Virus record (IMG/VR): IMGVR_UViG_2850796239_000011
Span: 1 to 64,000 of that record
Length of the DNA stretch: 64,000 bases
Reading direction: 5' to 3' (one strand)
Source of the DNA: a virus
Lineage: Duplodnaviria; Heunggongvirae; Uroviricota; Caudoviricetes
This document shows positions 35,017 through 55,031 of this stretch, piece by piece. The translations under genes were made by a program, and so were the position numbers. The notes under the pieces are model-generated. The model ran no database searches and was not told where the DNA came from. It was given only the letters and a program-made list of their open reading frames with translations. Within the stretch, counting starts at the first letter, position 1. Each line of letters opens with the position of its first letter.

Positions 35017-35304
35017 ATGCCATCCAGACTGTATAAACAGTTCATCCGTCATCTCGGTGAATCTGAATACATACGAATCCGCATATGGGAAGTGGAGCCT
35101 GCTGTATTGGGTAGCCAGCACAACTACAAATACAGCATGGCTTATGTCGTTGATGGCATGTGTGTGATGCGTTACGACAACGAACGGGGTAAAGGCGATC
35201 ACAAACACATTGGTAGTCAGGAAGTCAGCACCAGCTTTGTCACCATTGAACAACTGCTCGCTGATTTTCTGGCTGACGTTGAATCCATCCGCAGAGGTAT
35301 CTGA
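35017..35304 (+). CDS. Putative toxin-like protein (DUF6516/TumE-like motif)
   Basis: 95 aa; RBS GAGGA 8 nt upstream; motif 'MRYDNERGKGDHKHIG'; stop 1 nt before the next start. Confidence 0.55.
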   Translation: MPSRLYKQFIRHLGESEYIRIRIWEVEPAVLGSQHNYKYSMAYVVDGMCVMRYDNERGKGDHKHIGSQEVSTSFVTIEQLLADFLADVESIRRGI

Positions 35305-35305
35305 C

Positions 35306-35665
35306 ATGAGAACCGTAACAATCCGAATCGAGTCAATGGATAATTTCACGGCTGATGTGCTGTCTGCGTTCCAGGAAGCAGCTACCGGAGCAAAAGCAAC
35401 CAGAGAAAACGTTATTTCATTTCCTGACTGGCAAATGATGCATAAGGTACTGACACCAAAACGCATGGACATTCTGATGGCAATGACTGGTGCCGGAGAA
35501 ATGTCCATCCGAAAAATTGCAGCCCTGGTTGGACGTGATGTAAAAAGCGTGCATACTGACGTGACCGCACTCATCAGCAACGGTTTACTGGAAAAAAGCG
35601 AGCGCGGAACGTCATTCCCGTATGACGACATCCACTTTGATTTTACGCTGGGCAAGGCGGCGTAA
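35306..35665 (+). CDS. Putative winged-HTH DNA-binding partner (antitoxin-like)
   Basis: 119 aa from ATG at 35306; MarR-like wHTH segment 'LTPKRMDILMAMTGAGEMSIRKIAALVGRDVKSVHTDVTALISNGLLEKSE'. Confidence 0.55.
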   Translation: MRTVTIRIESMDNFTADVLSAFQEAATGAKATRENVISFPDWQMMHKVLTPKRMDILMAMTGAGEMSIRKIAALVGRDVKSVHTDVTALISNGLLEKSERGTSFPYDDIHFDFTLGKAA

Positions 35666-39346: not shown

Positions 39347-39706
39347 ATGACACATGAACCCATTAATACATATCGTCGCCGTATAGCTGTTGCGGCACTC
39401 CATCGAATAAAACGTAAAACAGGTGGTGATCTGCTTATTGTTGACCTTCTGGATGGGAACATTACGACCATAGAAATAACAGAACAGTTTATAAACCAGT
39501 TGCTGTTGCGCTTTGAAGGTATTACCCGTGGTGAATTGGGTCGAGTGGAGGGTGAAACAGAAATCCGAACTGCATACCAGAATGCTATCGGGATTAATCA
39601 ACATACTGAATACCAGGCTGAAACCGGAAAGTTAATTATAGACAACCTTTTACAAGAGGTTATTGATTACGCGAAAGAAAAATATATCAGAGGAGGAATT
39701 AACTGA
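39347..39706 (+). CDS. Hypothetical protein
   Basis: 119-aa ORF; no family recognised. Confidence 0.35.
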   Translation: MTHEPINTYRRRIAVAALHRIKRKTGGDLLIVDLLDGNITTIEITEQFINQLLLRFEGITRGELGRVEGETEIRTAYQNAIGINQHTEYQAETGKLIIDNLLQEVIDYAKEKYIRGGIN

Positions 39707-39793
39707 TGGCTAATTTATCCCCTGTATCTGTTGTGCACGAAAAAGTGCAGTGAGGTGTACTGGCAATAGCGGACACTACCATTTGTTCTTTTT

Positions 39794-40612
39794 TTAAGCA
39801 GCCATCTGATGATATTTTTCCCTGAAGGCTGCCGGGGAGATATTCCCCAGACGAGAGTGACGACGCTGACGATTGTAGAAAATCTCAATGTATTCCCGTA
39901 TTACTGAGATGGCTTCATCCCGGTTATTAAAACGATAGTGGCTCAGGCTCTCATTTTTCAGCGTTCCCCAGAAGCTTTCCATCGGAGCGTTGTCGTAACA
40001 GTTACCTTTACGCGACATTGATGTTTTCAGACCAGACTGCTCCTGTATGACCCGGTAATCGTATGCGCAGTACTGTGAACCTCGATCAGAGTGGTGGATT
40101 AGCCCGGCAGGTGGGCGCTGGCTCCTGAGCGCCATAAACAGGGCTTTACCTGTCAGCTCTTTTGTCATGCGCTCTCCCATGGCGTAGCCGACAATTTCGC
40201 ACGTATAAACATCTTTGATGCCAGCGAGGTACAACCATCCCTCCTGTGTGGCAACATACGTCAGGTCCGCCACCCAGACCTGATTTGGTGCTGTAGGAGC
40301 GAACGTCTGGTTCAGCAGATTTGGCGCAACTGGCAGATTGTGGTTCGGGTTCGTAGTCGCTCTGAACTTGCGTTTCTGCTTACAGCGTAGCCTTAGCTCC
40401 TTACGAAGACGTGCCAGTCGGTCACGACCAACGATGATGCCATTCTCTGCCAGCTCCGTCTGGAGCCGCCGGGTTCCATATGTTTCGCGAGTGCGGATAT
40501 GTGCCACCTTAATCTCCAGTTTTAGCCGCTCATCACTTTGTTTTCTGTCTGAGGGTTCATGCTGTACCCAGTTGTAATAACCGCTCCTGGATACACCAAA
40601 TACCTGACACAT
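39794..40612 (-). CDS. IS600 transposase OrfB (DDE integrase domain)
   Basis: 272 aa IS3-family OrfB. Confidence 0.9.
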   Translation of the reverse strand: MCQVFGVSRSGYYNWVQHEPSDRKQSDERLKLEIKVAHIRTRETYGTRRLQTELAENGIIVGRDRLARLRKELRLRCKQKRKFRATTNPNHNLPVAPNLLNQTFAPTAPNQVWVADLTYVATQEGWLYLAGIKDVYTCEIVGYAMGERMTKELTGKALFMALRSQRPPAGLIHHSDRGSQYCAYDYRVIQEQSGLKTSMSRKGNCYDNAPMESFWGTLKNESLSHYRFNNRDEAISVIREYIEIFYNRQRRHSRLGNISPAAFREKYHQMAA

Positions 40613-40647
40613 CGCTTCAATGGGAAATTGTTGTCGCCATTGTTCGA

Positions 40648-40950
40648 TTAACGCGTATTTTTCAGCGACTCCTGTGCAAAATACGCTGTTGCTTTTTTTA
40701 ATATATCTCGCTCAAGGCGAGCTTCATTTAACGCCTTACGCAGTTGCAGAATTTCAGATTCCAGTTCAGCCACCGTGCGGGAACCAGGAGTACCGAGCCC
40801 TTTTCTGGCGGCGGTAACCCATTGTCCTAAAGTGCCTTCAGGAAGGGATAATCGGGAAGCGCCTTCACTGATCGAAAGTTGATTTTCAAGAACCGTTCTG
40901 ACAGCTTCGGCTTTGAACTCTTTAGAGTAACGTTGGGTTTTTCTGCTCAT
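40648..40950 (-). CDS. IS600 OrfA (HTH)
   Basis: 100 aa 'MSRKTQRYSKEFKAEAVRTVLENQLSISEGASRLSLPEG'. Confidence 0.9.
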   Translation of the reverse strand: MSRKTQRYSKEFKAEAVRTVLENQLSISEGASRLSLPEGTLGQWVTAARKGLGTPGSRTVAELESEILQLRKALNEARLERDILKKATAYFAQESLKNTR

Positions 40951-41159
40951 TATTAGCTCCTTCTGATGCCATTCTATTTCAGGAAGGAGTGTCCGTTAAA
41001 CTCAGGCTACCTCACAGATCGTTATGACAATTGAAAATGGCCAGGTAACAGATGTCTGCAAAGTCCGCGATGGAGAGCTGATTGCCAGCATGGATACATT
41101 CATACGGCTGGCAGAAAGAGCGGGGTATCAGATAACAGCACCTGCTCAGGAGGAAACCA

Positions 41160-41378
41160 GTGACATTAACAGCAACACGAATTCCTGAGTGGGTCCACCA
41201 GCAGGCGTTGCTGGTCCTGCGGCGGTACAGATGCCGACGTATATTCCCGCATCGGATACAGCGCAACGGATATCTCAGTCTGAAGGTTAACCGTCGCTGG
41301 CGGCTGTTATCGAAAGACGACGGCCGGAACTGGGAAGTAATGAGTCATGAACGTTATTCGGGGGAAATAAAGAAATGA
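41160..41378 (+). CDS. Hypothetical small basic protein
   Basis: 72-aa ORF in early-left cargo region. Confidence 0.3.
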   Translation: MTLTATRIPEWVHQQALLVLRRYRCRRIFPHRIQRNGYLSLKVNRRWRLLSKDDGRNWEVMSHERYSGEIKK

Positions 41379-41522
41379 TCGACAACCGCACCGCCAGCGC
41401 CATTGACCAGGCATTACAGAAACATGATACACCCGTCGGCCCGTTATTTTTTGTAACACGCCACGGAAGAACAAAAAAAATGCCTCACCCGAAAAACGGC
41501 AATTCGTTACCTGGCATTCTTT

Positions 41523-41768
41523 ATGACCACCCGCGCTTTTGAACGTTCAGGATTCCGACAACGCCATCCTGACAAGCGTTTTATCTTCAACGGGAATGAG
41601 ATATGGAAACGTGGAGAATCAACCACAGAGTATACCCGCGCACACCAGCGAACAATCAGACGACTGCGCAGACTCATCGCCAGGAAACAGTATACAGAAA
41701 AATGGTTCAGAAAATATGACACATGGAGCGCCGGATATTACGAACTGATGGCAACAAAACCATTCTGA
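41523..41768 (+). CDS. Hypothetical small basic protein
   Basis: 81-aa ORF; overlaps another frame. Confidence 0.3.
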   Translation: MTTRAFERSGFRQRHPDKRFIFNGNEIWKRGESTTEYTRAHQRTIRRLRRLIARKQYTEKWFRKYDTWSAGYYELMATKPF

Positions 41769-41828
41769 CGTAAACGAAATTAACCATGACGCAATTAAAT
41801 AAGGCAAGCCGAATACATCAGGAGGACC

Positions 41829-42017
41829 ATGAACATTTATTTCAGAATAGTTATATCACTGGCAATTATCGCATGTATTTACGGATTAATCGTTCCGGCC
41901 CTCATATCAATGAAGGATACGGTAGCAGTGATTTCTGGCTTTGCTCTGGCGTGTCTGACCCCGCCCTGCATTTATGCCATTTATAAGGGTCTTTCTTTCC
42001 CCGGGAGGGAAAAATGA
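41829..42017 (+). CDS. Small membrane protein (two predicted TM helices)
   Basis: 62 aa, hydrophobic; ATGA-coupled to the SPFH lipoprotein gene. Confidence 0.35.
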   Translation: MNIYFRIVISLAIIACIYGLIVPALISMKDTVAVISGFALACLTPPCIYAIYKGLSFPGREK

Positions 42018-42242
42018 AAAAAACAATTGCGCTTGTTTTCGCGGTCAGTCTGGCTGTCTTCGGACTTGTAGGTTGCGATCGCGTTGAACCAGGTAATGTG
42101 GGTATCAAAGTCAACAAACTGGGCGACGACAAAGGTGTCGGTGAAGTGGTCGGTGTTGGTCGCTACTGGACTGGCTGGAATACTGAAGTGAACCGCCCCG
42201 GGAATCCTGGAGACTAAACTTCCTGAGAAAGAGGTAAACAGG

Positions 42243-42568
42243 ATGACTAAAAATACTCGTTTTTCCCCGAAGTCCGTCAGAGGGCGATTCGTATGGTTCT
42301 GGAAAGTCAGGGCGAATATGACTCACAGTGGGCGGCAATTTGTTCCATTGCCCCAAAGATTGGCTGTACACCGGAGACTCTGCGTGTCCGGGTACGCCAG
42401 CATGAGCGGGATACCGGAGGCGGTGATGGCGGGCTCACCACCGCTGAACGTCAGCGTCTGAAAGAGCTGGAACGTGAAAATCGTGAACTGCGCCGCAGTA
42501 ACGATATCCTTCGCCAGGCTTCCGCTTATTTTGCGAAGGCGGAGTTCGACCGCCTCTGGAAAAAATAA
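42243..42568 (+). pseudogene. IS629 orfA with 1-nt deletion
   Basis: Starts 'MTKNTRFSP' then shifts frame; the in-frame remainder is the 42293-42568 ORF; 'CCGAAG' where 'CCGGAAG' is expected. Confidence 0.7.
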
Positions 42569-43455
42569 TGCCACTGCTGGATAAGCTGCGTGAGCAGTAC
42601 GGGGTCGGACCGCTATGCAGCGAACTGCATATTGCCCCGTCAACGTATTACCACTGTCAGCAACAGCGACATCATCCGGATAAACGCAGTGCCCGTGCGC
42701 AGCGCGATGAGTGGCTGAAGAAAGAGATACAGCGCGTATACGATGAAAATCACAAGGTATACGGTGTGCGTAAAGTCTGGCGTCAGTTGTTACGGGAAGG
42801 TATCAGAGTGGCCAGATGCACTGTGGCACGTCTCATGGCGGTTATGGGACTTGCCGGTGTTCTCCGGGGTAAAAAGGTCCGTACGACCATCAGCCGGAAA
42901 GCCGTTGCCGCAGGCGACCGCGTAAACCGTCAGTTCGTGGCAGAACGACCTGACCAGCTGTGGGTGGCTGATTTTACTTACGTCAGCACATGGCAGGGCT
43001 TCGTCTATGTGGCGTTCATCATTGATGTGTTTGCCGGATACATCGTGGGGTGGCGGGTCTCATCGTCCATGGACACGACATTCGTGCTGGATGCACTGGA
43101 GCAGGCGTTATGGGCCCGTCGACCGTCCGGCACGGTCCATCACAGTGATAAAGGTTCTCAGTATGTATCGCTGGGCTACACACAGCGGCTTAAGGAAGCC
43201 GGATTACTGGCATCAACAGGAAGTACAGGCGACTCGTATGACAACGCGATGGCGGAGAGCATCAATGGTCTTTACAAAGCGGAGGTAATACACCGTAAGA
43301 GCTGGAAAAACCGTGCAGAAGTGGAACTGGCCACACTCACGTGGGTGGACTGGTATAACAATCGACGATTGCTGGAAAGGCTGGGCCATACTCCTCCGGC
43401 AGAAGCAGAAAAAGCTTATTATGCTTCCATCGGAAACGATGATCTGGCAGCCTGA
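42568..43455 (+). CDS. IS629 transposase OrfB
   Basis: 295 aa IS3-family DDE transposase. Confidence 0.85.
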   Translation: MPLLDKLREQYGVGPLCSELHIAPSTYYHCQQQRHHPDKRSARAQRDEWLKKEIQRVYDENHKVYGVRKVWRQLLREGIRVARCTVARLMAVMGLAGVLRGKKVRTTISRKAVAAGDRVNRQFVAERPDQLWVADFTYVSTWQGFVYVAFIIDVFAGYIVGWRVSSSMDTTFVLDALEQALWARRPSGTVHHSDKGSQYVSLGYTQRLKEAGLLASTGSTGDSYDNAMAESINGLYKAEVIHRKSWKNRAEVELATLTWVDWYNNRRLLERLGHTPPAEAEKAYYASIGNDDLAA

Positions 43456-44191
43456 GTTCACAGATAAAACACTCTCCAGGAAAACCGGGGCGGTTCAGAA
43501 GTTTACATTTTCCCGACCTTCAAGCAAATGAAGACCTACGATGAACCGTTCAGTTTCCAGATGAGTGACGGCACAACCATCGGCTATCACATCGGCGTGG
43601 CCTACAAAGTTGATCCATCCAAAGTTACCACAGTCTTTCAGACTTACCGCAAAGGCGTGGATGACATTACCGACACTGACCTGCGCCAGAAAATTGCCGA
43701 CGCACTCAATCGGCTGGCCAGCAAAATGACCACTGACAAATTTATCGACGGCGGCAAGTCTGAACTACTGGATGCCGCACTTAAAGACATTCAGGAAGAG
43801 ATGACACCCATCGGCATTCAGGTAATGAGCCTCTCTTATGTAGGTAAACCGGAATACCCTCCAACCGTTATCGACAGCATTAACGCCAAAGTCACGGCAA
43901 ACCAGAAAACCCTGCAGCGCGAACAGGAAGTCAAGCAACGTGAAGCGGAGGCCAACATGCTACGTGCGGAAGCTGCCGGACAGGCTGATGCCATTCGAAC
44001 AAAAGCCCAGGCAGAAGCCGATGCCATTCGTTTACGCGGCGAAGCTCTACGCCAGAACCCAGGCGTCATGGAGCTGGAAGCCATCAACAAGTGGAACGGT
44101 ACACTGCCGCAATACATGACCAGTGGTGCCAATACACCATTTATCCAGATTAAATAACTTATATGCCCGGCAGGCCGCCGGGCTAAGGGAA

Positions 44192-44518
44192 ATGCAGATG
44201 AACACCCAGAATACTCAACCGCAAATAATGAACTATGACCCGAATCTGACGTCATGCGGACGCATGGCAAAACAAACCGTTCGATTAACTTTCGGACTAT
44301 GGGAATACCGCGAAACATTCGAAGTTACTGTCGGCGGCAATCTGACCGGACTGGATGTTATCAGTTGCGCTATTGAAAGCCTGTACGCAACGCTGCCTTA
44401 TGAAGAAGTCGAGGATGAGCGCACAGGGGAAACAGATATCATGGCCACCATTAATATTGGCGAACTGATATGTCAGGATGAAGACCTGTCCGGAGAGCTC
44501 TGGCTTGCCGGGATGCTT
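44192..44518 (+). pseudogene. Hypothetical gene whose 3' end is interrupted by IS600 copy 2
   Basis: ORF stop is supplied by the first bases of the IS; the original reading frame resumes after the IS at 45786 and ends at 45836. Confidence 0.4.
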
Positions 44519-44581
44519 TGAGGTAGCCTGAGTTTAACGGACACTCCTTCCTGAAATAGAATGGCATCAGAAGGAGCTAAT

Positions 44582-44884
44582 AATGAGCAGAAAAACCCAA
44601 CGTTACTCTAAAGAGTTCAAAGCCGAAGCTGTCAGAACGGTTCTTGAAAATTAACTTTCGATCAGTGAAGGCGCTTCCCGATTATCCCTTCCTGAAGGCA
44701 CTTTAGGACAATGGGTTACCGCCGCCAGAAAAGGGCTCGGTACTCCTGGTTCCCGCACGGTGGCTGAACTGGAATCTGAAATTCTGCAACTGCGTAAGGC
44801 GTTAAATGAAGCTCGCCTTGAGCGAGATATATTAAAAAAAGCAACAGCGTATTTTGCACAGGAGTCGCTGAAAAATACGCGTTA
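44582..44884 (+). pseudogene. IS600 orfA with premature stop (Gln24 to stop)
   Basis: Identical to copy 1 orfA except CAA to TAA at 44651-44653. Confidence 0.7.
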
Positions 44885-44920
44885 ATCGAACAATGGCGAC
44901 AACAATTTCCCATTGAAGCG

Positions 44921-45739
44921 ATGTGTCAGGTATTTGGTGTATCCAGGAGCGGTTATTACAACTGGGTACAGCATGAACCCTCAGACAGAAAACAAAGTGA
45001 TGAGCGGCTAAAACTGGAGATTAAGGTGGCACATATCCGCACTCGCGAAACATATGGAACCCGGCGGCTCCAGACGGAGCTGGCAGAGAATGGCATCATC
45101 GTTGGTCGTGACCGACTGGCACGTCTTCGTAAGGAGCTAAGGCTACGCTGTAAGCAGAAACGCAAGTTCAGAGCGACTACGAACTCGAACCACAATCTGC
45201 CAGTTGCGCCAAATCTGCTGAACCAGACGTTCGCTCCTACAGCACCAAATCAGGTCTGGGTGGCGGACCTGACGTATGTTGCCACACAGGAGGGATGGTT
45301 GTACCTCGCTGGCATCAAAGATGTTTATACGTGCGAAATTGTCGGCTACGCCATGGGAGAGCGCATGACAAAAGAGCTGACAGGTAAAGCCCTGTTTATG
45401 GCGCTCAGGAGCCAGCGCCCACCTGCCGGGCTAATCCACCACTCTGATCGAGGTTCACAGTACTGCGCATACGATTACCGGGTCATACAGGAGCAGTTTG
45501 GTCTGAAAACATCAATGTCGCGTAAAGGTAACTGTTACGACAACGCTCCGATGGAAAGCTTCTGGGGAACGCTGAAAAATGAGAGCCTGAGCCACTATCG
45601 TTTTAATAACCGGGATGAAGCCATCTCAGTAATACGGGAATACATTGAGATTTTCTACAATCGTCAGCGTCGTCACTCTCGTCTGGGGAATATCTCCCCG
45701 GCAGCCTTCAGGGAAAAATATCATCAGATGGCTGCTTAA
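44921..45739 (+). CDS. IS600 transposase OrfB
   Basis: 272 aa, two substitutions relative to copy 1. Confidence 0.9.
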   Translation: MCQVFGVSRSGYYNWVQHEPSDRKQSDERLKLEIKVAHIRTRETYGTRRLQTELAENGIIVGRDRLARLRKELRLRCKQKRKFRATTNSNHNLPVAPNLLNQTFAPTAPNQVWVADLTYVATQEGWLYLAGIKDVYTCEIVGYAMGERMTKELTGKALFMALRSQRPPAGLIHHSDRGSQYCAYDYRVIQEQFGLKTSMSRKGNCYDNAPMESFWGTLKNESLSHYRFNNRDEAISVIREYIEIFYNRQRRHSRLGNISPAAFREKYHQMAA

Positions 45740-45867
45740 AAAAAGAACAAATGGTAGTGTCCGCTATTGCCAGTACACCTCACTTATCTCAGCAGAAATT
45801 ATCAGTATTGAACCCGCTACAAACATACGGCTCTGAAGTTCTCACTATTCAGAGAGCAGGAGAAAAA

Positions 45868-47874: not shown

Positions 47875-47977
47875 CTTTTAATACCCGTCATGTTAACTGT
47901 TAATGAGGGCATTGAGTCGGGGGCTGGCAGCATACTGCGCAAGCACAGTGGCAGCCACATTCTGCACGTTATGCCTC

Positions 47978-52112: not shown

Positions 52113-53599
52113 CCTGTTACCCCGCTGGAATAAACCGACACAAGCGCCGAATTCGTGATACGCCGACGTGCGTCATCGGTAATACCCTTCACATTGTCCG
52201 ACGTTGTGGTGACATTCAGTGTCCCGATATGCGTGGTTTCCGTTACGGTGGACTGCGATACAGGCGCAGGATGGCGCGACCGTATGGCCATTGCCGCACC
52301 CGGATAAGGCAGGTTCGCCAGCACCCGCGGAATATAGTTGCGGGTCTCCTCCGGAGCAGCAGCCAGTCCCTTACGCTGAACATTTCCCTCTCCCCAGTTA
52401 TATGCCGCCAGAGCCTTAGCCAGATCGCCATGAAAAAAACGTATCAGGCCACCAAGTTTTCTCGCGGCGGCATCAGCGGCTTTTTCGGGATCAAAGGCAT
52501 CGTTCCCCTCAGACCAAATTCACTGGCCGTCTTCGGCATGAACTGAAACAGTCCCATCGCACCAGCAGGTGAGACGGCAAACTGATTACCACGGGATTCG
52601 GTGATCGCAACGCTGCGCAGCAGTCCGGGCGGCAGGTTATATTTTTCCTCCAGTTGAGACAGTTTCGGTTGCAGCCAGCCTAACAGGGCTTCCCCGGTCT
52701 TCGTCGGTCGCTGGCGGTTTTGCATGGCATTACCGAGTTTTTCCTGCGTCGCACGCATACCCTGTAGCCAGGATTCACCGAAGGCTGCTTCCCTCCCGGT
52801 TGCCTGAGAAGCCTGAGTATCCAGCATGCCCTGCTGCCATACTGTGGGTGATTGTGCCCGGGTGATGTTGCCAGGCTTTTCTCCGGCATCCAGTTTTGTC
52901 TGATACGTCTCCATCTCTTTCTTATTGAAAAAGAAAGTCCCGTCTGAAGCCCAGAAAAAACCATGTGAATCCAGCCAGTCCTTATTTTCCCTGCCAACAA
53001 TGGATGTCAGTAATCCGTCAACAACCGGGTAAAGCGCCGTTATCGCAAAAAGAAGGCCTCCGGGGCCACTGAGGGCTTTTGTCAGCCCCCCGCACCCATG
53101 ACGCCACTTTCAGCCCGATCAGCGTAATAATGGCATTCTGCCAGCCCCCCAGTTCTCCGGCAGCCTTATTCGCCAGGGAGGCCACTGACTCAACGTCATT
53201 CAGAAATGTGGTGATAAACCTGTTCACTTCCTCCGGATGTTGCTGCATCCAGTCACCGAGTGTCTCCAGCCAGTGGCTGAGCTTCAGCGCGTACGGCATC
53301 AACGCGGTGCTAATCGTCATCCCGATGCCGGACCAGGTCTGATCGAGCTCAACAAGCTCTTTTCGTAGCTTACGGGCCAGCGCTATACGCCCCGGCGTAA
53401 CCTGCGAACGGGAAGTAAATTCGTCCACATCTTTCAGCGCATGACCGGAGCCAAGAAACTGCTGTCCGGCATAACTGAAGCCCAGCGCGTTGCCGTAGGC
53501 AGTTTGTTCGGACTTTGTCAGTCGCGGAAAAATAACCGCCAGCTTGCGCATGATGGCTTCAGTGCTGTCAGTATTTAAATCAACACTAGGCTGTGTCCC

Positions 53600-54115
53600 T
53601 TAATTACGTAAGCGTTGATAAAAGAGTCGGATGCAGCCCAGTTTCACCATCGCCAGGTAATTTCTCGCCGTTTTGTCGTAACGCGTGGCGATGCGGCGAT
53701 ATTCTTTCAGCCGCCCAAAGCACCGTTCAACGACATTACGATTGCGGTACGCATCACGATCAAGCTGTGCACGTCCATCCGATGCCATTTTCTCATTTGA
53801 CTTTCGGGGGATTACTGCCTTTATACCGTTATTTTTCAGCTCGTTGCGCAATGCGCGCCCTGAATACGCTTTATCAGCCAGTACCGCATGTCCACGGCGT
53901 TTCATGCTGCCGTTCTGACGCTGAACGCCAATCCCGTCCAGAAGTCGTTGCGCGAACTGGCTTTCATGAGCTTGTCCGGGGCTTAGCACGATATTTAACG
54001 GGAGGCCACTTCCGTCTGTTGCCAGATGGATTTTGGTGCCAAAACCGCCGCGAGAGCGACCCAGCCCATTATCTCCGTCGATATCGGGATGTTTTTTTGA
54101 GCACCGGCGGCACAT
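53600..54115 (-). CDS. IS5-family transposase OrfB (DDE domain), -1 frame relative to OrfA
   Basis: 171-aa ORF 'GLGRSRGGFGTKIHLATDGSGLP'; overlaps orfA across 'CAAAAAAAC' (54092-54098). Confidence 0.7.
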   Translation of the reverse strand: MCRRCSKKHPDIDGDNGLGRSRGGFGTKIHLATDGSGLPLNIVLSPGQAHESQFAQRLLDGIGVQRQNGSMKRRGHAVLADKAYSGRALRNELKNNGIKAVIPRKSNEKMASDGRAQLDRDAYRNRNVVERCFGRLKEYRRIATRYDKTARNYLAMVKLGCIRLFYQRLRN

Positions 54116-54444
54116 TTCAGCGCCCGGATATTACTGCCATCCAGCGCGGTGGCAGACCAGTCAATAAAGCCGTTTGCATCAAGTAGCGAAAGCAACCTGT
54201 TGAAAATAATATTAATCACGCCTGACTTTGACCATCGGTTAAAGCGGTTATAAACAGTTTTCCATGACCCATATCGTTCGGGTAAATCGCGCCATGGTGC
54301 ACCGGAACATAACACCCAGAACATGCCATTGATGATTTTACGGTGCTCAGCCCATGGGCGTCCGGCCCGTGGTGTGGCGGGTTCAGGAGGTAACAGGGGC
54401 TTGATGATGGTCCATGCCTCATCGGGAAGGTCGTAGCGAGCCAT
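53995..54444 (-). CDS. IS5-family transposase OrfA (N-terminal domain)
   Basis: 149 aa 'MARYDLPDEAWTIIKPLLPP...GAPWRDLPERYGSWKTVYNRFNRW'. Confidence 0.7.
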   Translation of the reverse strand: MARYDLPDEAWTIIKPLLPPEPATPRAGRPWAEHRKIINGMFWVLCSGAPWRDLPERYGSWKTVYNRFNRWSKSGVINIIFNRLLSLLDANGFIDWSATALDGSNIRALKCAAGAQKNIPISTEIMGWVALAAVLAPKSIWQQTEVASR

Positions 54445-55031
54445 AGTTCAATATGTTGTGTAAACAGACAGTTACTATAGCTCAGATGATTAAGGGACAC
54501 AGCCTAATGCCCGCCCTGGCTGCAACCTGAAACAAATCCTGTAACACAGGATCAAAGGACCTTCCGGCTCTGAAGGCCGCTTTTGCATTTGCAAGCCGGG
54601 AAAATGCCCCAGACATTTCCCCTTCATCAACATTATTTGCCCGCGCAGCCCGTAACCATCCGTCCAGATTTCTGGCCTTCATGCCAAAAGCATCAGATTC
54701 CACGGACAGACGGTTCAGATCACGGGCAAAACCTGTTACCAGGTTCTTCAGCCCCCCCAGCGTCAGACTGACACCCGCAAGAGCCAGAATCTCGCTACGG
54801 ATCCCTGAAAAAAAACGGGACGCCCGTTTCCCGGCATCTTCCATTCGACGGGCCGTTTTATCAGCATCTTTTCCGGTTTTTTCCAGTGATTCACTGGTTT
54901 TCTTCTGTCCCTGACTGAATGTGTCAGCGACACCTTCCATCACCGTCGTGAGCCGGTTAAGGGCAGCATGTACTGCCTGTTCCCCGGCAGTAAAGTCCCT
55001 GTCATCAATCCCGAGGGACAGAACAAGCTCA

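Follow-up and report, generated by a model that had tools for sequence, protein, structure and literature searches.

IS600 Copies in the Early-Left Operon

We analyzed 64,000 nucleotides of Caudoviricetes DNA (IMG/VR record IMGVR_UViG_2850796239_000011, positions 1 to 64,000), referred to below as the window, in which two copies of the insertion sequence (IS) IS600 lie within the early-left operon of a lambdoid prophage. The window is matched without a single mismatch over 20,324 bp by the chromosome CP026875.1 (5,164,076 bp, assembly GCA_002950355.1). The host is probably Shigella boydii, the sole basis for this being that the neighboring accession, CP026876.1, belongs to a plasmid of S. boydii. 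In its immunity, early-left and int module the prophage is phiP27-like, and three relatives were used for comparison: phage phiP27 itself (L001), a near-identical prophage of Escherichia coli FDAARGOS_944 (L002) and another near-identical prophage (L003). In the Stx2e-converting phiP27 and in the phiP27-like prophages located at yecE in E. coli, the int/xis/early-left/immunity/replication module is collinear with that of the window and 85–97% identical to it, while for L002 identity reaches 98–100%. The late region of phiP27, in turn, is unlike that of the window prophage, and the latter differs from its phiP27-like relatives by the presence of three IS insertions, that is, the two IS600 copies and one IS629 element (Table 1).

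A repeat search returned a single long repeat in the entire window, an inverted pair of 1269 nt (39749-41017 versus 44516-45784), which contains both IS600 copies; their opposite orientation, described in an original prediction made from the sequence alone, is thus correct. Both elements are IS600, members of the IS3 family, whose transposition proceeds by copy-out/paste-in with a circular intermediate. Their near-identity and length fit this assignment, and they are 0–3 bases away from copies labeled "IS3-like element IS600 family transposase" by the Prokaryotic Genome Annotation Pipeline (PGAP), copy 1 being 1–2 bases apart from copies with this label. The exact OrfA and OrfB proteins bear the source names IS600 ORF1 and ORF2. 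The imperfect terminal inverted repeats, 5'-TG...CA-3' (TGAGGT... / ...ACCTCA), are the same in both copies (left repeat, IRL, TGAGGTAGCCTGAGTTTAACGGACAC; right repeat, IRR, TGAGGTGTACTGGCAATAGCGGACAC). The orfA gene comprises 100 codons and encodes the HTH_Tnp_1 domain, whereas the orfB open reading frame (ORF) of 272 codons lies in the -1 frame and encodes the rve domain. An A7G slippery run occupies IS positions 316–323, in the orfA/orfB overlap, and sister IS600 copies are marked "programmed frameshift" in their PGAP annotation.

IS600 is abundant in Shigella, enteroinvasive E. coli (EIEC) and certain E. coli that produce Shiga toxin (STEC), e.g., O121:H19, and in Shigella, EIEC and a number of STEC lineages both IS600 and IS629 are known to have been amplified (PMC9397093). 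The window copies share with the known IS600 elements the length, ends, orfA/orfB layout, A7G site and 3-bp target duplication and are 99.8–100% identical to them; the element type is the same, and the difference lies in a stop at codon 24 (Q24) of orfA that appears private to copy 2. Both insertion sites in the window, too, appear to be unique to the strain.

Table 1. Features of the region carrying the two IS600 copies (window coordinates; TSD, target site duplication).
Feature	Position	Strand	Remarks
71-aa phage gene (phrog_340)	39706-39750 and 41018-41188	+	split by copy 1 after codon 15; start in ATGA overlap with upstream stop
TSD CAG, copy 1	39748-39750 and 41015-41017	.	read directly
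IS600 copy 1	39751-41014	-	1264 bp, apparently intact
Copy 1 orfB ORF	39794-40612	-	OrfB allele P89/S193
Copy 1 orfA ORF	40648-40950	-	A7G slippery site 40692-40699
ParE-like gene (PF24732)	41160-41378	+	72 aa; overlaps 3' end of split 71-aa gene
Frameshifted gene	41375-41768	+	one extra A in poly-A run 41473-41474
SPFH/Band_7 lipoprotein gene	42014-42188 and 43502-44157	+	split by IS629; rebuilt ORF 276 aa
TSD GAAG, IS629	42185-42188 and 43498-43501
IS629	42189-43497	+	1309 bp
DUF5406 gene	44198-44521	+	cut by copy 2; 107 of 123 codons left (44198-44518); 3' remnant 45786-45836
TSD CTT, copy 2	44516-44518 and 45783-45785	.	read directly
IS600 copy 2	44519-45782	+	1264 bp, both ends intact
Copy 2 orfA	44583-44885	+	Q24 to TAA at 44652-44654; A7G site 44834-44841
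Copy 2 orfB ORF	44921-45739	+	OrfB allele S89/F193 (bases 45185 and 45498)

Target Duplications and Empty Sites

Each of the IS600 copies is flanked by a perfect 3-bp duplication of its own, CAG for copy 1 and CTT for copy 2, as was proposed originally and is now confirmed by base-by-base realignment and direct reading of the flanks. Two such 3-mer matches would be expected by chance in about 1 in 4096 cases. For every IS600 insertion we joined 25 nt of left flank, one TSD copy included, and 25 nt of right flank into a 50-mer and searched the relatives for the corresponding empty site. That of copy 1, with a single CAG, is present in L002 (50/50) and L003 (49/50), and that of copy 2, with a single CTT, in L002 (50/50) and phiP27 (49/50). 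In a megablast comparison, L002 aligns with the window in collinear blocks of one orientation which overlap at each IS by exactly the duplicated bases, and phiP27 is likewise collinear with the window across the bracketed region and in the same orientation. As each copy has its own TSD, the empty sites are intact in relatives and the bracketed DNA is collinear with theirs, each IS600 copy is a simple insertion independent of the other, and independence is also what the original prediction had claimed. Nothing that we found contradicts independent insertion. Short target duplications are also seen at the other elements: GAAG at IS629, and GTG, AAG and CAT at three other sites where related prophages of EIEC-like E. 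coli carry IS600.

The arrangement as a whole was not recovered elsewhere. None of the phage records and complete E. coli genomes spans 80% or more of the region, and a second genome with both IS600 copies was found neither among these two sets nor in a protein look-up. The exact 30-mers of the copy 1 junctions have no match in GTDB representative genomes, and those of copy 2 none in GTDB representative genomes and Joint Genome Institute (JGI) metagenomes. The 107-aa truncated DUF5406 protein that ends at copy 2 occurs only on CP026875.1 and on a 1,079-bp Logan contig, SRR8186612, which matches the window without a mismatch from the end of IS629 up to the 28th nt of copy 2.

Sequence Differences between the IS600 Copies

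Aligned base by base, the copies differ at exactly 3 of 1264 positions (IS positions 134, 667 and 980), each of which is a C in copy 1 and a T in copy 2 on the coding strand, in agreement with the original prediction. Position 134 belongs to orfA codon 24, which reads CAA in copy 1 and TAA in copy 2. This nonsense codon is real, although it had been placed one base too far to the left, at 44651-44653. A 71-mer centered on it was matched at 5,917 IS600 places in 5,426 complete E. coli genomes, in no case perfectly over its full length, and all top matches stop at 98.6% (one mismatch). Among 72,556 plasmids it was matched at 1,409 places in 384 plasmids (140 from Shigella), again never perfectly over the full length. 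A 39-mer around the nonsense base is equally without a match in JGI metagenome contigs. Since the allele was not found elsewhere, the change is derived and appears to be private to copy 2.

Positions 667 and 980 correspond to the OrfB replacements P89S and S193F (window positions 45185 and 45498 in copy 2, 40348 and 40035 in copy 1). They were initially taken for two further mutations of copy 2, a view which our comparison with the IS600 population overturned. An exact-sequence look-up among about 15 billion proteins, with occurrences counted in contigs, returned S89/F193, the allele of copy 2, as the commonest (at least 1000 contigs), and P89/S193, the allele of copy 1, in 333 contigs. The two combinations that neither copy has were also retrieved, S89/S193 in 951 contigs and P89/F193 in 359, the latter being nonetheless encoded on the same chromosome, CP026875.1. 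Furthermore, 980T, alone or together with 667T, is seen in the IS600 copies of L002 and L003. Reverting only 134T to C makes copy 2 agree at all 1264 nt (100.0% identity) with IS600 copies on many chromosomes and plasmids of EIEC and O121, i.e., with a common IS600 sequence, and copy 1 is 100.0% identical to the IS600 on the S. dysenteriae plasmid NZ_CP119451.1. Both orfB differences are standing polymorphisms of IS600 subtypes; hence, copy 2 has one private mutation and not three. The two copies accordingly descend from different IS600 subtypes, which provides further evidence of their separate arrival. It follows that differences between IS copies of one genome should be polarized against the wider IS population before they are called mutations.

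We also considered a strand-specific C-to-T mutational signature in copy 2, and rejected it, two of the three sites being population polymorphisms. As a separate observation, all four combinations of OrfB residues 89 and 193 are abundant as exact proteins in public data and at least three of them are encoded on CP026875.1, which implies that IS600 copies have recombined or undergone gene conversion, or that the mutations have recurred.

Transposition Competence of Copy 2

In the IS3 family, the transposase is an OrfA-OrfB fusion produced via -1 frameshifting, and that of IS911 acts about 200-fold more strongly in cis than it does in trans (PMC5009743). The HTH_Tnp_1 domain of OrfA spans residues 3–75, so that the stop at codon 24 falls within it, and with this stop neither OrfA nor the frameshift fusion OrfAB would be made. 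Copy 2 is, then, predicted to be defective in cis, that is, in supplying its own transposase. As its ends are intact, it should still be movable by the transposase of other IS600 copies, if inefficiently.

Interrupted Genes and the Bracketed Segment

The segment between the copies had been described as approximately 3.5 kb of small genes. The length is right (3498 nt, 41018-44515), but 1309 nt of it are IS629, and only about 2.2 kb is phage DNA, in which most genes are broken. The original prediction mentioned neither IS629 nor the frameshifted gene, nor the gene split by copy 1. The latter is an intact 71-aa coding sequence in the PGAP annotation of L002 and L003 at the site where copy 1 sits in the window, and the phrog_340 profile covers residues 2–70 of it, including the part that lies upstream of the IS. 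The split phrog_340 gene and the ParE-like toxin-domain gene which overlaps its 3' end could represent an antitoxin/toxin module with a disrupted upstream partner. No NCBIfam or PADLOC matches were obtained for the proteins of the bracketed segment.

The gene downstream of the ParE-like gene has an intact homolog of 130 aa in L003. Its poly-A run contains one A more than in L003, and that of L002 one A fewer; these differences are due either to slippage that shifted the frame independently in each case or to consensus errors at homopolymers of long-read assemblies. The SPFH/Band_7 lipoprotein gene is interrupted by IS629, another member of the IS3 family, whose empty site is present in both L002 and L003 (60/60). 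Its ends match those of the known element and its 4-bp TSD is as annotated for the reference copy. Compared end to end with an annotated IS629 of 1310 bp, the window element shows 20 substitutions and one 1-base deletion, which is located early in orfA (near 42268) and puts OrfA, hence OrfAB, out of frame, while orfB (42568-43455) is open. Taken together with the stop in copy 2, this means that two of the three IS copies in the 6-kb stretch cannot make their own transposase.

That copy 2 cuts a gene starting at 44192 was correct as to the cut, but the start is more likely 44198, as supported by PGAP and the PHROG profile, 44192 being an in-frame ATG two codons upstream. The truncated DUF5406 gene ends with a TGA stop formed by the first three bases of copy 2. 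Its full homolog in L002 and the rebuilt window gene are both 123 aa long, so copy 2 removes the last 16 residues; as the DUF5406 Pfam domain occupies residues 12–116, the domain itself is clipped. A scan of the region for promoters and terminators gave no excess over shuffled sequences, and the sole notable sites were promoter-like hexamers inside IS600, in both copies.

Alternative Explanations

Tn10 and Tn5 are composite transposons with inverted IS arms, and two near-identical inverted IS copies flanking 3.5 kb, as in the window, bring to mind a unit of this type that moved into the prophage together with the enclosed DNA. The likeness is one of geometry only, namely two inverted copies of one IS with a few kb between them. 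The outer flanks are unlike (CAG and CTT), as are the inner ones (again CAG and CTT), each IS having a TSD of its own; with neither an outer nor an inner match, the segment did not transpose as a unit. In contrast to Tn10 and Tn5, the window pair has no shared outer duplication and encloses native phage DNA in place: both empty sites exist in relatives, the enclosed genes are early-left genes in the order and orientation of L002, L003 and phiP27, and neither phage records nor E. coli genomes, GTDB representative genomes or JGI metagenomes yielded the unit. This explanation, whose probability we regard as negligible, fails on the TSDs, the empty sites and the collinearity, and the original prediction was right to treat the resemblance as one of appearance only. 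A related thought is that the pair acts as a recombinational switch which flips the 3.5-kb segment, with regulatory consequence. Inverted repeats of 1264 bp with 99.8% identity are good RecA substrates, and IS-associated chromosomal inversions have been reported in Shigella genomes (PMC7819885). Yet, the TSD pairs are matched correctly and the segment, collinear with the relatives, runs in the native direction. Had it been inverted an odd number of times, the TSD halves would be exchanged, the signature of an inverted segment; recombination between the copies has thus not left it flipped. Moreover, the enclosed genes are mostly broken (the split 71-aa gene, the frameshifted gene, the split SPFH gene and the truncated DUF5406 gene), which leaves no obvious function to switch, and no second genome with both copies, in which the flipped state might be seen, was found. 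We consider such a switch extremely unlikely, while the inverted pair remains a potential site of homologous inversion in the strain.

It could also be argued that a local hop within the prophage produced one copy from the other and that the three differences are later C-to-T mutations of copy 2. The distance of 3.5 kb between the copies and the small number of differences (3 of 1264 positions, each with C against T on the same strand) speak in favor of such an origin. However, two of the three differences exactly match widespread IS600 alleles, the copy 2 revertant is a common IS600 sequence and copy 1 another existing one, and two independent mutations that exactly rebuild a common haplotype are much less likely than different donors. 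The P89/F193 OrfB allele on CP026875.1 also argues against a local hop, which we find very unlikely. An assembly or sequencing artefact in part of the arrangement, e.g., a mis-joined repeat or a wrong base at the nonsense position, seems highly improbable too. The arrangement is known from one complete assembly, 1.3-kb repeats are hard to assemble, and a neighboring gene has a homopolymer-length frameshift, an error type of long-read consensus sequences. Against this, the independent short-read contig SRR8186612 agrees without a mismatch with the stretch that begins at the IS629 end, crosses SPFH and DUF5406 and finishes at the IS600 end, all six IS/flank junctions have clean TSDs fitting the empty sites, unlike a mis-join, and a C-to-T substitution is atypical of long-read errors.

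We are confident in a scenario of three separate IS3-family insertions in the early-left operon of the prophage, with different IS600 donors and a loss of orfA in copy 2. The three elements entered approximately 6 kb of the operon one by one: IS600 copy 1, in antisense orientation, into the 71-aa gene, IS629 into the SPFH lipoprotein gene and copy 2, in sense orientation, into the 3' end of the DUF5406 gene, each insertion generating its own target duplication of 3, 4 and 3 bp, respectively. The IS600 donors belonged to different subtypes that Shigella and E. coli already harbored. At about the time of its insertion or later, copy 2 gained the single private C-to-T change that places a stop at orfA codon 24, and would from then on move only with transposase from other IS600 copies, a route that is presumably inefficient for the IS3 family. 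The net effect is inactivation of genes and probably polarity on the genes that lie between the early-left promoter and xis/int.

Some caveats apply to this scenario. An even number of past inversions would give the same arrangement, and the subtype markers might in principle have been altered after insertion through gene conversion between IS600 copies. Setting OrfB residues 89 and 193 against the OrfB of IS629 did not polarize the ancestral base at positions 667 and 980. The nonsense base comes from one deposited assembly, as the contig SRR8186612, the only independent one, ends short of position 134. Finally, the effects on prophage gene expression and excision are ones that we infer.

IS-Driven Decay of the Prophage

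Situated between the presumed early-left promoter and xis/int, the three IS insertions and the frameshift together put at least four early-left genes out of action. This is ordinary IS-driven prophage decay typical of Shigella and textbook behavior of the IS3 family; for Shigella, rearrangements associated with IS elements and the decay of prophages have been well documented (PMC7819885). The value of the present case lies mainly in annotation, in that it shows how a prophage is being degraded. The IS-degraded lambdoid Shigella prophage described previously (PMC7819885) has likewise decayed by IS elements, including, in one strain, an IS600 with a damaged orfA. In contrast to the window prophage, which keeps long late-gene ORFs, it has lost most of its structural genes; also unlike that prophage, the window segment between the IS600 copies holds small accessory genes only. 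The described prophage carries stx.

The IS600 insertions at other sites in related prophages imply that insertions into this module are recurrent and recent. In total, five independent IS600 insertions and one IS629 insertion fall within about 8 kb in three strains. This could mean that the early-left/int module is a preferred or selectively favored landing zone for IS3-family elements in Shigella/EIEC lineages, which we think rather unlikely: the sample of relatives is biased since the query itself contained IS600, and neutral tolerance of insertions in accessory prophage genes accounts for the pattern equally well. If it were true, the insertions could fix the prophage at its site or shut down early genes that do harm, an example being the splitting of the small gene upstream of the ParE-like toxin gene.

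Surroundings of the Prophage

The int/att side of phiP27-like E. coli prophages is located at yecE, whereas that of the window prophage adjoins a second, myovirus-like prophage instead. Around position 47892 (47885-47975), a phiP27-like att arm (...GTTAACTG) is fused to a DUF2612 gene, at its 5' end, and to the baseplate module of this second prophage, and the junction shows CTG microhomology only. Homology to the second prophage, in the form of ipaH and the remnant of a tail-fibre-assembly gene, picks up again at 637-3118. From these two places of homology it appears that the lambdoid prophage of approximately 44.8 kb sits within the ipaH-carrying prophage or replaced 2.5 kb of it. The ipaH-type gene for a type III secretion system effector (1060-2823; ORF of 587 aa) is positioned just past the tail-fibre end of the lambdoid prophage, and its DNA is 98.5% identical to the ipaHa region of EIEC CFSAN029787.

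Within the second prophage, an insertion of about 0.9 kb (53589-54503), which is missing in the EIEC relatives, splits a lytic-transglycosylase/tape-measure-like gene. It has imperfect inverted ends of approximately 30 nt and two overlapping ORFs of the DDE_Tnp_1 type, and is IS5/IS427-like. On the immunity side of the lambdoid prophage (35017-35665), we found adjoining small genes encoding the Pfam domains TumE (PF20126) and HVO_A0114 (PF25212).

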